Notes under the pieces: generated by a model
What the model saw: only the letters and a program-made list of their open reading frames with translations
Databases searched by the model: none
Told to the model about the DNA's origin: nothing
Shown here: positions 25,899 to 27,999 of the stretch, piece after piece
Numbering within the stretch: position 1 is the stretch's first letter
Layout of the letters: each line of letters opens with the position of its first letter
Translations under genes and position numbers: made by a program
UHGV virus genome: UHGV-0205600
Strand: one strand, 5' to 3'
Length of the DNA stretch: 41,458 bases
Source of the DNA: a virus

Positions 25899-26318
25899 TT
25901 AGTAACTTTTGCTCCCCTCAATAAATCCGCCATCTTTTATCGGACTGCAATGTCCTTCTTCATCAATCAGTTGCTCGTCTTTCAGGTAGGTATATCGATA
26001 GATAATTGAGCCATTATCCATCTCACCATTGGTTCGTTTCATTAGGAGAGTAAAATGTAACGGGCTGTCCCTATATCGAGCTATTCCATGAATATTGGCA
26101 AGTACCTCATATTGACGCTCAGGTGATAACCCTTTAAATACATCGAGATATCCATGGAATGTTCCATAGAGTGAAGAAGTGTAGATCAGTCGCTGCTCTG
26201 GACCAGTAACTTTAAGAGTAATTTGTTCACCCGTATTACAGGTTAGCTTGGCGGGAAATGTCTCAGCCTGAGCAGAAGAAATAGTCAAGCTTAAAATTAT
26301 CAGGTAGCAATATTTCAT
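25899..26318 (-). CDS. secreted hypothetical protein (about 139 aa)
   Basis: Start at MKYCYLIILSLTISSAQA, a typical Sec signal peptide ending AQA-E; AT-rich; same strand as and upstream of the 488-aa ORF. Confidence 0.55.
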   Translation of the reverse strand: MKYCYLIILSLTISSAQAETFPAKLTCNTGEQITLKVTGPEQRLIYTSSLYGTFHGYLDVFKGLSPERQYEVLANIHGIARYRDSPLHFTLLMKRTNGEMDNGSIIYRYTYLKDEQLIDEEGHCSPIKDGGFIEGSKSY

Positions 26319-26973
26319 GTGATTAGAATGTCCAAAACTAACATGTATACTCGGGATTCTATAACTAGTTGGATGTAGACCCAAGATGTATTGGACTATT
26401 CTTCGGTTGTAGTTGGTCAAATCATATATTTTATGTCAGCAATGTCTACTTTTGGCACATAGCAGACCAGAGACACTGGCGTAAAGCCATGGAGGATCGG
26501 TGGGAGGAGGTAAAAATCCTCTCATGCAAAAAATACGCAAAATCGATAACAGTTGGAAATCATTCAATACTCGCACTATCGGAAGTTCACCAGCCAGCCG
26601 CAGCACGTTCTTGCATACGACGAGCCTGCGGTTTCATTTATCTCCGACCGGAAACATCTTATACAGTGTCGATACACCAACATCATAGATGATCGCTACC
26701 TTCTGGCGAGGAACTCCTGATGCAATTAATCGCCTGGCCTACGCCCATTATTCAGGGGTAAATTTGGGACGGCAGCCCCCAATTCCATCCTCAGTTCTCC
26801 CTCGCACTGAGGAGTAGTAAGTGCAATTATTTAAAAAATCGCAAACAGAATATTATTATTTATTCTTGCATTCTGTTAATTAAAACTACACATAAAAACG
26901 TTGATACTTGATAAGTAAGTAGAGTATTATTAATGGTTTTAATAACGAACCTTTTAATTATGAGAAGCCTCAA

Positions 26974-27999
26974 ATGACAAGTACCGAAAACATAACAAGA
27001 AAAAAAATGGATGGAGTAACAATATTAAGATTTATAGCTGCTTTTTATGTGTTTATTTTTCACATTAACATGAGGGTCCCTGTTAATTTTGGAGAACTGC
27101 TTAATAAAACCATTAGTAATGGCGTCATTGGCATGAGTATTTTCTTCATGCTTTCTGGTTTTGTTTTGACTTATAATTACTATGGTTCCTTGTCAAAGAA
27201 TTACTTCAGGAAGCGAATAGCAAGAATATTTCCAGCCTATTTATTTTGTGGGCTTTTAACCCTTCCATTTTTGTTATCCAGCGATGCAAGTTTTTTAAAA
27301 ATGATTGCAAGCATATTCTTGTTTGTTACTGGAATGCAATCATGGATTTATCAGACCTTCGATTTTTGGAATTTTAGCGGGACCTGGTCAATATCAGTTG
27401 AATTGTTTTTTTATGCCCTGTTTCCATTTTTGATAAAAAGCATCAACAAAAATAATGTAATTTATGTTTTACTTTTTTCATATTTATCCTCAGCATTATT
27501 AATCCCATTGTCTGATATAATCCAGGGACCTGTAGTTTGGTCCGTATATTATGCAACTCCCATATACAGATTACCAGAATTTGTGGTGGGCATCTGTATA
27601 GCAATACTTTTTTTAAATGGCTATCGTGTTAACCATTATACATGGCTATTAAGCATTTTATTATTTATGTATGCTACCACTCAGCAAAACAATAACTCCA
27701 TGGGGGTAAACTACCTCACAATTCCTGCGATATCAATTATGTTATTGCACCTGGCAAAAATCAACATAAAAAATAATATTGCAAACAGAGCGATCATTTA
27801 CTTTGGAGATATAAGTTATTCGTTTTATTTGATGCAATTACCTATATTATATTACCTGGATCATAATAAAAACTCATTTATTCTTAACTATGGTCTTTTT
27901 AGCTGGCTTGTACTTTTTGTTATTAATACTGCAATGGCATCATTATCTTATCACTTTCTGGAGAAGAACGATAAAATCAGAAAAATAATTACATCCTGA
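26974..27999 (+). CDS. integral-membrane acyltransferase (acyltransferase-3 family; putative O-antigen acetylase)
   Basis: 341-aa protein with about ten hydrophobic segments and the N-terminal RFIAAFYVFIFH motif of acyltransferase-3 enzymes; next to tail-fibre genes and attP, as for serotype-converting phages. Confidence 0.8.
   Translation: MTSTENITRKKMDGVTILRFIAAFYVFIFHINMRVPVNFGELLNKTISNGVIGMSIFFMLSGFVLTYNYYGSLSKNYFRKRIARIFPAYLFCGLLTLPFLLSSDASFLKMIASIFLFVTGMQSWIYQTFDFWNFSGTWSISVELFFYALFPFLIKSINKNNVIYVLLFSYLSSALLIPLSDIIQGPVVWSVYYATPIYRLPEFVVGICIAILFLNGYRVNHYTWLLSILLFMYATTQQNNNSMGVNYLTIPAISIMLLHLAKINIKNNIANRAIIYFGDISYSFYLMQLPILYYLDHNKNSFILNYGLFSWLVLFVINTAMASLSYHFLEKNDKIRKIITS

Follow-up and report, generated by a model that had tools for sequence, protein, structure and literature searches.

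A mobile tail-fibre and AT3 acyltransferase cassette of Escherichia coli O7 carriers, and its probable role in serotype conversion and superinfection exclusion

The 41,458-nucleotide virus genome UHGV-0205600 (hereafter 'the window', meaning the whole stretch of DNA that was analysed) raises the question of why a gene for a membrane acyltransferase should lie between tail-fibre genes and the phage attachment site (attP), and whether the small secreted protein encoded divergently next to it is part of the same system. The initial annotation had pointed to a 341-residue protein of the acyltransferase-3 family beside the tail-fibre genes and near a thrW-type attP, and to a secreted protein of about 139 residues with which it would share a promoter region. 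The former, referred to as AT3 in the following, is indeed encoded there (PF01757 match; 46-nt match to thrW), and so is the latter, at 25899–26318 on the minus strand, 655 bp from AT3 and with a signal-peptide-like N-terminus. We consider it probable that the locus represents an O7-linked serotype-conversion and superinfection-exclusion module in which AT3 acts on the O7 O-antigen of Escherichia coli, and we arrive at this view from the integrity of the enzyme, its linkage to the fibre tip, and the hosts in which it is found. The features that carry the argument are as follows.

26974–27999, plus strand: AT3-only membrane O-acyltransferase, 341 residues, 31% GC (PF01757, PHROG 3333, motifs)
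26802–26973, plus strand: AT-rich upstream region of AT3 alone, about 29% GC (GC content, promoter scan)
28001–28027, no strand: hairpin, a 12-bp G+C-rich inverted repeat between the convergent AT3 and assembly genes (folding energy −19.4 kcal/mol, z −2.8)
28042–28437/28452, minus strand: tail-fibre assembly chaperone (PF02413 Caudo_TAP, E 3e-23; PHROG 188)
28437–29453, minus strand: tail fibre (PF21722 Gly_rich_2)
28437–29162, minus strand: glycine-rich receptor-binding tip, fibre residues about 98–338, the part of the fibre that belongs to the mobile cassette

AT3 is intact, consists of an AT3 domain alone and retains every catalytic motif. Its residues 14–317 cover positions 3–315 of the 326-position Pfam profile PF01757 (Acyl_transf_3; E 5.3e-28, 98.5 bits against a cut-off of 31), and PHROG 3333 ('O-acetyltransferase') is matched with E 9e-41. 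The motifs R19-X10-H30, F57-F-x-L-S-G-F63, R81-x-x-R84 (here R81-I-A-R84) and W138...E143 as well as Y193 and E330 are present. In an alignment of 120 sequences, made up of 117 family members, Sf6 Oac and the TL-2011b enzyme, at least 90% retain each of them, and for R-X10-H and for RXXR the share is at least 98%; conservation of at least 90% is reached at about 50 positions of this alignment. R-X10-H in the first transmembrane helix, RXXR in helix 3 and other AT3 residues have been described as essential for function (PMC9833829). Neither the Pfam scan nor the alignment revealed an SGNH domain: the protein contains a single Pfam domain and ends 11 residues past E330, and it matches only the first 339 of the 647 positions of the AT3-SGNH PHROG 6705. 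A simple hydropathy scan, which merges and misses helices, finds hydrophobic segments along the whole length, and a search for a solved structure matching AT3 by sequence found none. The identical protein is encoded on at least 24 contigs. With 31% GC, the gene stands out from the window (48%), and low GC is typical of horizontally acquired polysaccharide-modification genes. A run of eight A residues (A8; 27000–27007, codons 9–11) lies just before the second in-frame ATG (M12), at which the RefSeq annotation of strain REL606 places the start. Phase variation at this tract was considered and rejected: its length is the same in 11 of 11 related loci, so that there is no sign of slipped-strand switching, and 26786–26973 contains no GATC.

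It might still be argued that AT3 is a silent or decaying passenger which hitch-hikes with the fibre tip and confers no phenotype on the lysogen. Both the gene and the DNA upstream of it have a very high AT content (29–31% GC), and H-NS commonly silences such DNA; many copies reside in defective prophages (as in REL606), and that of strain CE10 is split and annotated as two acyltransferase coding sequences. Yet alleles from different chromosomal sites, 3–4% apart at the DNA level, have kept the reading frame and all catalytic motifs, the start region shows the constancy just described in all 11 loci, the gene is preceded by a promoter-like site and a ribosome-binding site (see below), and the family is conserved at 35–58% identity across genera. 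We thus regard a mere passenger as quite improbable.

How AT3 relates to enzymes of known function was assessed with BLASTP and with the profile of its family. The profile recognises Sf6 Oac (54 bits, E 8e-18), which is 23% identical to AT3 over 261 residues, and gp49 of phage TL-2011b (165 bits), which is 29% identical over its full length (E 2e-21). OacD of SfII (BLASTP E 0.5) and Oac of phiV10 do not score significantly against it, nor do WecH (0.9 bits; BLASTP E 0.93) and OpgC (5.5 bits; BLASTP E 0.098). The comparison with Oac enzymes that had been proposed at the outset thus yields a divided answer, as Sf6 Oac is recognised by the profile while AT3 is an orthologue neither of Sf6 Oac nor of OacD or phiV10 Oac; by sequence, AT3 is a member of the family but apparently of no characterised orthologous group. 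A grouping with peptidoglycan or other non-LPS (lipopolysaccharide) acyltransferases, named earlier as the outcome that would contradict an O-antigen role, is not what the sequences indicate, given that the profile scores Sf6 Oac rather than WecH or OpgC and that the SGNH domain is lacking.

It is then of importance for the interpretation of AT3 that the gene does not move alone. In prophages with Mu-type baseplates (Gp45–48), homology to the window starts at 26536–26673 and ends at 29162, within the fibre gene, and thus takes in AT3, the assembly gene and, of the fibre gene, the distal two thirds; homology extends past 29162 only in prophages that have the baseplate type of the window (Wedge1/Baseplate_J/Sheath_initiator). 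The position of this boundary inside the fibre gene implies that tip, chaperone and AT3 move together between two baseplate types, a closer linkage than that in Sf6, phiV10 or SfII. The cassette of ~2.6 kb (about 26536–29162), consisting of fibre tip, chaperone and convergent AT3 with its own promoter, is one mobile block. It is found at no fewer than five chromosomal positions (tRNA-Pro/yejM, ssrA, att-lambda between ybhB and bioA, torT, and thrW), and among 5426 complete E. coli genomes tip and assembly gene occur in 69 and AT3 in 66. The hairpin at 28001–28027 may serve as a bidirectional terminator between the convergent genes, though it has no clear U-tract. In four mouse-isolate O7 strains (8178, DEF2, DEF10 and FEA3), two genomic places match the AT3/fibre-tip cassette, suggesting that each cell harbours two prophages that both carry it.

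More distant relatives of AT3 keep similar company. A homologue with 58% identity has another kind of assembly gene and a Gp53-like fibre tip as its neighbours, and those of Enterobacter (54%), Citrobacter (43%) and Morganella (42%) are located at prophage ends beside a Phage_tail_C_2 fibre, a Peptidase_S74 fibre and a Caudo_TAP gene, respectively. Copies in Pectobacterium and Pseudomonas reside in prophage remnants, and a relative from Legionella (35%) is encoded inside an LPS/O-antigen cluster together with glycosyltransferases and a flippase.

Which surface structure, then, is linked to the cassette? Since several carriers were named as O7 (IAI39, CE10, and an O7:H7 strain from which a partial protein is known) and E. 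coli B possesses an O7-type cluster with IS1 next to wbbD, the complete genomes were searched for the O7 wzy gene. It occurs in 97 of the 5426 genomes (1.8%), and at least 57 of the 66 AT3 carriers have it, the typing of carriers having covered 83 of the 97 O7 wzy genomes. A naive hypergeometric P of about 1e-98 is inflated by clonal derivatives of E. coli B. Separate acquisitions can nevertheless be argued from three sites with differing alleles, all in O7 strains: REL606 (att-lambda), IAI39 (ssrA) and 3-72 (tRNA-Pro) carry alleles that are 97.0%, 96.0% and 99.9% identical to the window, and three independent O7 carriers would be expected by chance with a probability of the order of 6e-6, given O7 at 1.8%. 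The cassette is adapted to O7 hosts. The initial annotation had left the substrate of the acyltransferase as not evident from sequence; it can now be narrowed by the contrast between the carriers and the 97 O7 genomes among all 5426, and the O7 polysaccharide as the acceptor would be the most economical reading in view of the precedents discussed below.

Based on the evidence collected so far, we infer the following course of events. In a lysogen, AT3 would be made from its own promoter and inserted in the inner membrane, where it would take up an acyl group (most probably the acetyl of cytoplasmic acetyl-CoA) via a transmembrane pore and pass it on the periplasmic side to a sugar hydroxyl of a surface polysaccharide. 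The acceptor would most likely be the E. coli O7 O-antigen, i.e., the structure to which the linked fibre tip is adapted. The outcome would be an altered O-antigen epitope (serotype conversion) and poorer adsorption of this phage or its relatives (superinfection exclusion), with the progeny likewise shielded from cell debris.

Several points weigh against this reading. Orthologue-level similarity to a characterised O-antigen acetylase was not found among Sf6 Oac, OacD and phiV10 Oac, and TL-2011b gp49, the closest phage relative in the phage collection, is itself uncharacterised. A literature search found no paper on this AT3, on an AT3 gene next to tail-fibre genes in an E. coli prophage, or on O7 O-acetylation (a paper on the CE10 'O-acetyltransferase' was set aside since it concerns NeuO, a different enzyme). 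The published O7 repeat unit is not known to carry an O-acetyl group. The O7 association was drawn from complete genomes carrying AT3, and not from the host of the window itself; nine of the 66 carriers fall outside the typed set (two of them being resequenced records of a strain already typed O7), and clonal laboratory B strains swell the O7 count. Moreover, E. coli B keeps an intact AT3 although it makes no O-antigen, so that retention of the gene requires no O-antigen substrate. Finally, the O7 link could reflect the host range of the tail fibre alone, whatever the acceptor may be.

The last two points lead to an alternative, namely that AT3 modifies another envelope glycan, such as enterobacterial common antigen (ECA), LPS core, colanic acid, capsule or periplasmic glucans, and that the O7 link merely mirrors fibre host range. 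AT3 enzymes act on many acceptors (PMC9558356), rough E. coli B retains the intact gene as mentioned above, and a chromosomal homologue in Photobacterium has neither phage nor O-antigen context. A capsule would likewise be available in two of the named carriers, as IAI39 and, judged from its strain name, CE10 are both O7:K1. On the other hand, the family profile scores Sf6 Oac and not WecH (ECA) or OpgC (glucans), an OatA-type SGNH domain is absent, and the location of AT3 beside receptor-binding genes in four genera, along with the LPS cluster of Legionella, fits a glycan that serves as phage receptor. Furthermore, ECA, core and glucans are common to all E. coli and would not explain the O7 restriction. 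Hence, we judge a different envelope glycan to be an unlikely, albeit not a negligible, choice, and retain the O7 O-antigen as the probable acceptor.

The copies in E. coli B merit separate description. In REL606 (NC_012967.1, 789277–802662) and BL21, the cassette, with an AT3 gene 97% identical to that of the window, is located in a defective prophage beside att-lambda. An unrelated 381-residue AT3 protein and a 445-residue hypothetical protein are encoded just upstream of the cassette in the REL606 prophage, and beside the truncated fibre tip the stretch at 8274–9032 of this locus is annotated as an incomplete 'anti-CBASS protein Acb1 family protein', which may be a fused or mis-annotated fragment. 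Lysogens of the BL21(DE3) type are O7 and are devoid of the cassette, presumably due to laboratory rearrangement at att-lambda.

The second part of the opening question concerns the gene for the secreted protein and the DNA that separates it from AT3. The features on this side of the locus, and those at its outer ends, are the following.

26637–26801, minus strand: pseudogene of a Pin/Din-family invertase, C-terminal 55 codons (helix-turn-helix end), two in-frame stops
25899–26318, minus strand: secreted orphan protein, 139 residues, signal peptide and eight-stranded β-barrel
24117–25583, minus strand: 488-residue protein with an N-terminal PD-(D/E)xK nuclease domain and a long helical C-terminal half, between the 139-residue gene and attP
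23678–23723, minus strand: attP core, identical to the 3' 46 nt of tRNA-Thr thrW
22500–23663, plus strand: integrase (open reading frame listing and family scans)
beyond the fibre: baseplate genes, DUF2612/Phage_Wedge1, Baseplate_J and others (family scans)

The region between the two genes (26319–26973) had been described as a shared AT-rich promoter region of 655 bp. Its length is as given; its composition is only mildly AT-rich overall (40% GC as compared with 48% for the window), and it holds a dead pin gene and a separate promoter-like site for each of its neighbours. GC content amounts to 49% at 26536–26785 and drops to 29% in the 188 bp at 26786–26973, where the best promoter-like site for AT3 (26901–26930, plus strand, TTGATA-18-TATTAT) is followed by the ribosome-binding site GAGAAG; the promoter-like site of the 139-residue gene is found at 26448–26421 on the minus strand. 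The pin remnant was identified by tblastn with PinE of a related prophage (L002), with 76% identity over PinE residues 130–184 (E 2e-25), and in that prophage the remnant DNA runs on into an intact pinE; RefSeq calls the stretch an incomplete helix-turn-helix pseudogene. To the left of it, a block with attP, the 488-residue gene and the 139-residue gene (23660–26635 or 23660–26785) recurs at 99% identity in many prophages, where the next genes are either a capsid-gene fragment, a GIY-YIG gene and then pinE, or at once an intact pinE with an invertible fibre segment, and never AT3. This block is not restricted to O7, being present, for example, in an O21:H9 strain. The left block and the AT3-bearing right block overlap at 26536–26785, that is, in the stretch of the pin remnant, from which it follows that the 655 bp constitute a recombination scar. 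They are the junction of two independently mobile modules and not one promoter region.

These findings bear directly on the possibility that AT3 and the 139-residue protein form a two-component system with a bidirectional promoter, the latter acting as periplasmic transfer partner. The genes are adjacent and divergent in the window as well as in six of the eight contig places shown that have the identical AT3 (99.9–100% identity to the window), and a published review leaves open whether a partner is required by AT3-only enzymes (PMC9558356). However, the 139-residue gene occurs with the 488-residue gene and without AT3 in many complete E. coli genomes, AT3 lacks the 139-residue gene as a companion where it is inserted near tRNA-Pro, ssrA, att-lambda or torT, and among the 5426 complete genomes megablast found none with the whole stretch 23600–28500 and none in which the two genes are contiguous. 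Diverged homologues of the 139-residue protein are encoded by lone terminal prophage genes, those of AT3 never neighbour a 139-residue gene, the dead pin gene lies in between, and the modelled barrel of the 139-residue protein appears avidin-like rather than of an SGNH or other hydrolase fold. On the grounds of gene distribution and fold, we have therefore rejected the 139-residue protein as a partner of AT3, and a two-component system appears to us highly improbable; the promoter-sharing partnership of the initial annotation finds no support.

A related observation comes from the end of a Klebsiella pneumoniae prophage (L034), where a 316-residue AT3 protein (13398–14348) with 30% identity to SfII OacD over 165 residues is encoded beside a 942-residue protein, and where the terminal gene, about 6 kb away, is a homologue of the 139-residue family. 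Both types of genes thus recur unlinked in the moron zone at prophage ends.

The pin remnant also offers an explanation for the origin of the cassette. An invertase crossover-like site, TCTCCCAAACCAAGGTTTTCGAGAG, is present once in the window, at 29086–29110 within the tail-fibre gene; its recognition relied on the local sequence and on inverted repeats of related loci, and a search for the Mu gix consensus gave no match within three mismatches. Two related prophages (L001 and L002) have an intact pinE and an inverted pair of such sites flanking an invertible fibre segment of ~1.9 kb, with the partner site next to pinE. In the window, this partner site is absent. Compared with the Pin/Gin/Cin inversion systems of e14, Mu and P1, the window has thus kept the 55-codon C-terminus of pin and one crossover-like site; it differs in that the invertase is truncated and carries two stops, the second site is missing, and AT3 is found in the place of the alternative fibre. 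The simplest reading of these remains would be that AT3 came in with its AT-rich promoter at the expense of the alternative fibre segment and the larger part of pin, and thereby fixed fibre specificity. Recombination through the common pin remnant would have brought the 139-residue and 488-residue morons beside the cassette. It is tempting to go one step further and to propose that tip, chaperone and AT3 constitute an O7-specific module to 'recognise the receptor and then mask it', which moves between unrelated baseplates via the crossover site and the pin remnant and yields a chemically undescribed O-acylated O7 variant. We put this extended proposal forward tentatively, as one that is plausible and yet may well turn out to be incorrect.

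As for the 139-residue protein itself, the most apt description is that of an orphan periplasmic moron independent of AT3. The listed open reading frame encodes 173 residues from a TTG at 26420; the conserved product starts with the ATG at 26318. The N-terminus, MKYCYLIILSLTISSAQA followed by ETF, is signal-peptide-like; Cys27 is found in all homologues, and at least 90% of them have Cys124. A structure model (predicted local distance difference test score, pLDDT, of 86) exhibits an eight-stranded up-and-down barrel of avidin-like architecture. No match was obtained in Pfam, NCBIfam or PHROG; the family comprises 11 clusters in a word-indexed search and nine in a profile search of 1.84 billion proteins, and the latter retrieved no relatives outside the family itself, so that homology to avidin or calycin barrels at the family level was not found. 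The homologues in Citrobacter and Klebsiella are encoded by the last gene of lambdoid prophages, adjoining the host junction. With low confidence, one might speculate that the protein acts in the periplasm as a binder or inhibitor, to the benefit of exclusion or host fitness.

The 488-residue gene, which the initial annotation had passed over, is a separate, attP-proximal moron outside the AT3 cassette. D74, Q88 and K90 are invariant in its product, for which no Pfam match was obtained with the window copy; among homologues, 4 of 23 match Mrr_cat and some are named DUF4297. PADLOC gave a weak match to LmuA (E 0.004), and the best Foldseek match is the Lamassu nuclease LmuA and is also weak (E 5.6e-4, template-modelling score about 0.25). 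In Lamassu, the Cap4-type nuclease LmuA is encoded beside the SMC-like ATPase LmuB, whereas the 488-residue gene stands without one: the open reading frame listing contains neither LmuB nor LmuC beside it. Homologues of similar length (about 485 residues) are distributed sporadically across phyla, in Gammaproteobacteria, Burkholderia and Bacteroidota. Judged from these similarities, the gene is a candidate for a stand-alone anti-phage defence gene.

On the plus strand, the order of the locus is integrase, attP, 488-residue gene, 139-residue gene, AT3, assembly gene, fibre and baseplate genes, with 3.25 kb between the AT3 gene and attP. The attP core is an exact 46-nt copy of positions 31–76 of thrW of E. 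coli K-12, the annotated attP of SfII maps onto 23709–23729, and alignments of prophage copies with the window begin at 23660–23694 and run rightwards. The stretch from int to attP is 97–98% identical to those of SfII, SfIV, SfI and SfV. Nucleotide similarity between SfII and the window is, however, confined to int-xis-attP, and an assignment of the window to the SfII family was rejected since this is their sole common part. Genes for tRNA-Thr(TGT) and tRNA-Asn(GTT) lie side by side at 10535–10690 (minus strand), a pair that Sf6 also carries, downstream of its late promoter.

That O-antigen acetylases carried by phages bring about serotype conversion and phage exclusion is well known, and the principle is thus not new. 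What the present analysis adds is that an uncharacterised clade of AT3 enzymes is tied to a specific and testable substrate, the O7 antigen, of a serogroup that includes neonatal-meningitis and other extraintestinal strains as well as the E. coli B laboratory lineage. Inheritance of tip, chaperone and receptor-modifying enzyme as one cassette would provide a rule for predicting pairs of phage receptor and exclusion from genomes, and the locus gives a concrete example of an invertible tail-fibre system that appears to have been replaced by a fixed fibre and a modification gene. A false lead has been removed as well, as the secreted protein is not the partner of AT3. If the proposal is correct, an O-acylated O7 variant would exist in O7:K1 extraintestinal pathogens (IAI39, CE10) and would be latent in the ancestors of E. 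coli B/BL21, and linked genes would predict a phage receptor and its modification from sequence alone.

In a comparison with known systems, the claim that an acyltransferase between a receptor-binding gene and attP is the arrangement of serotype-converting phages is borne out: the experimentally characterised O-antigen acetylases of Sf6, phiV10 and SfII occupy the same slot. SfII resembles the window in its int-attP(thrW) stretch (97% identity) and in a convergent pair formed by an assembly gene (17599–18033, plus strand) and an acyltransferase gene (18806–19855, minus strand), the product of which has been named OacD (PMC9558356). OacD, which catalyses 6-O-acetylation of N-acetylglucosamine (GlcNAc), differs in having no pairwise similarity to AT3 beyond the family level, and SfII carries gtrA-gtrB-gtrII beside attP where the window has the 488-residue and 139-residue genes. 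In TL-2011b, a phage of E. coli O103:H25, gp49 is encoded directly after a 697-residue protein, probably the tailspike, and is in this respect like AT3, but gp49 and its neighbour are co-directional and not convergent.

The phage phiV10, like the window, combines in E. coli a tail fibre (20996–23623, plus strand) with a convergent oac gene of the AT3 family (23636–24652, minus strand), and the annotation of the latter ('acetylates the host O-antigen; functions in superinfection immunity') states the very function proposed here for AT3. Yet phiV10 is a podovirus of the epsilon15 type that infects O157:H7, and its Oac clusters by sequence with WecH (27% identity, E 3e-18) rather than with AT3. 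Another close parallel among characterised enzymes is that of Sf6, even though Sf6 is a podovirus with a tailspike, as opposed to the contractile tail with fibre and chaperone of the window phage, its host O-antigen is that of S. flexneri rather than, as it appears for AT3, of E. coli O7, and its Oac, at 23% identity, is a distant paralogue rather than an orthologue. Sf6 Oac (OacA, an O-antigen 2-O-acetyltransferase) (i) is likewise an AT3-only protein of similar length (333 versus 341 residues), (ii) shares the R-X10-H, RXXR, FFxxSG and WxxxxE motifs, and (iii) is encoded (15624–16625, minus strand) convergently with the tailspike gene (13719–15590, plus strand) and directly after it, between the receptor-binding gene and int/attP, a layout like that of AT3 in the window.

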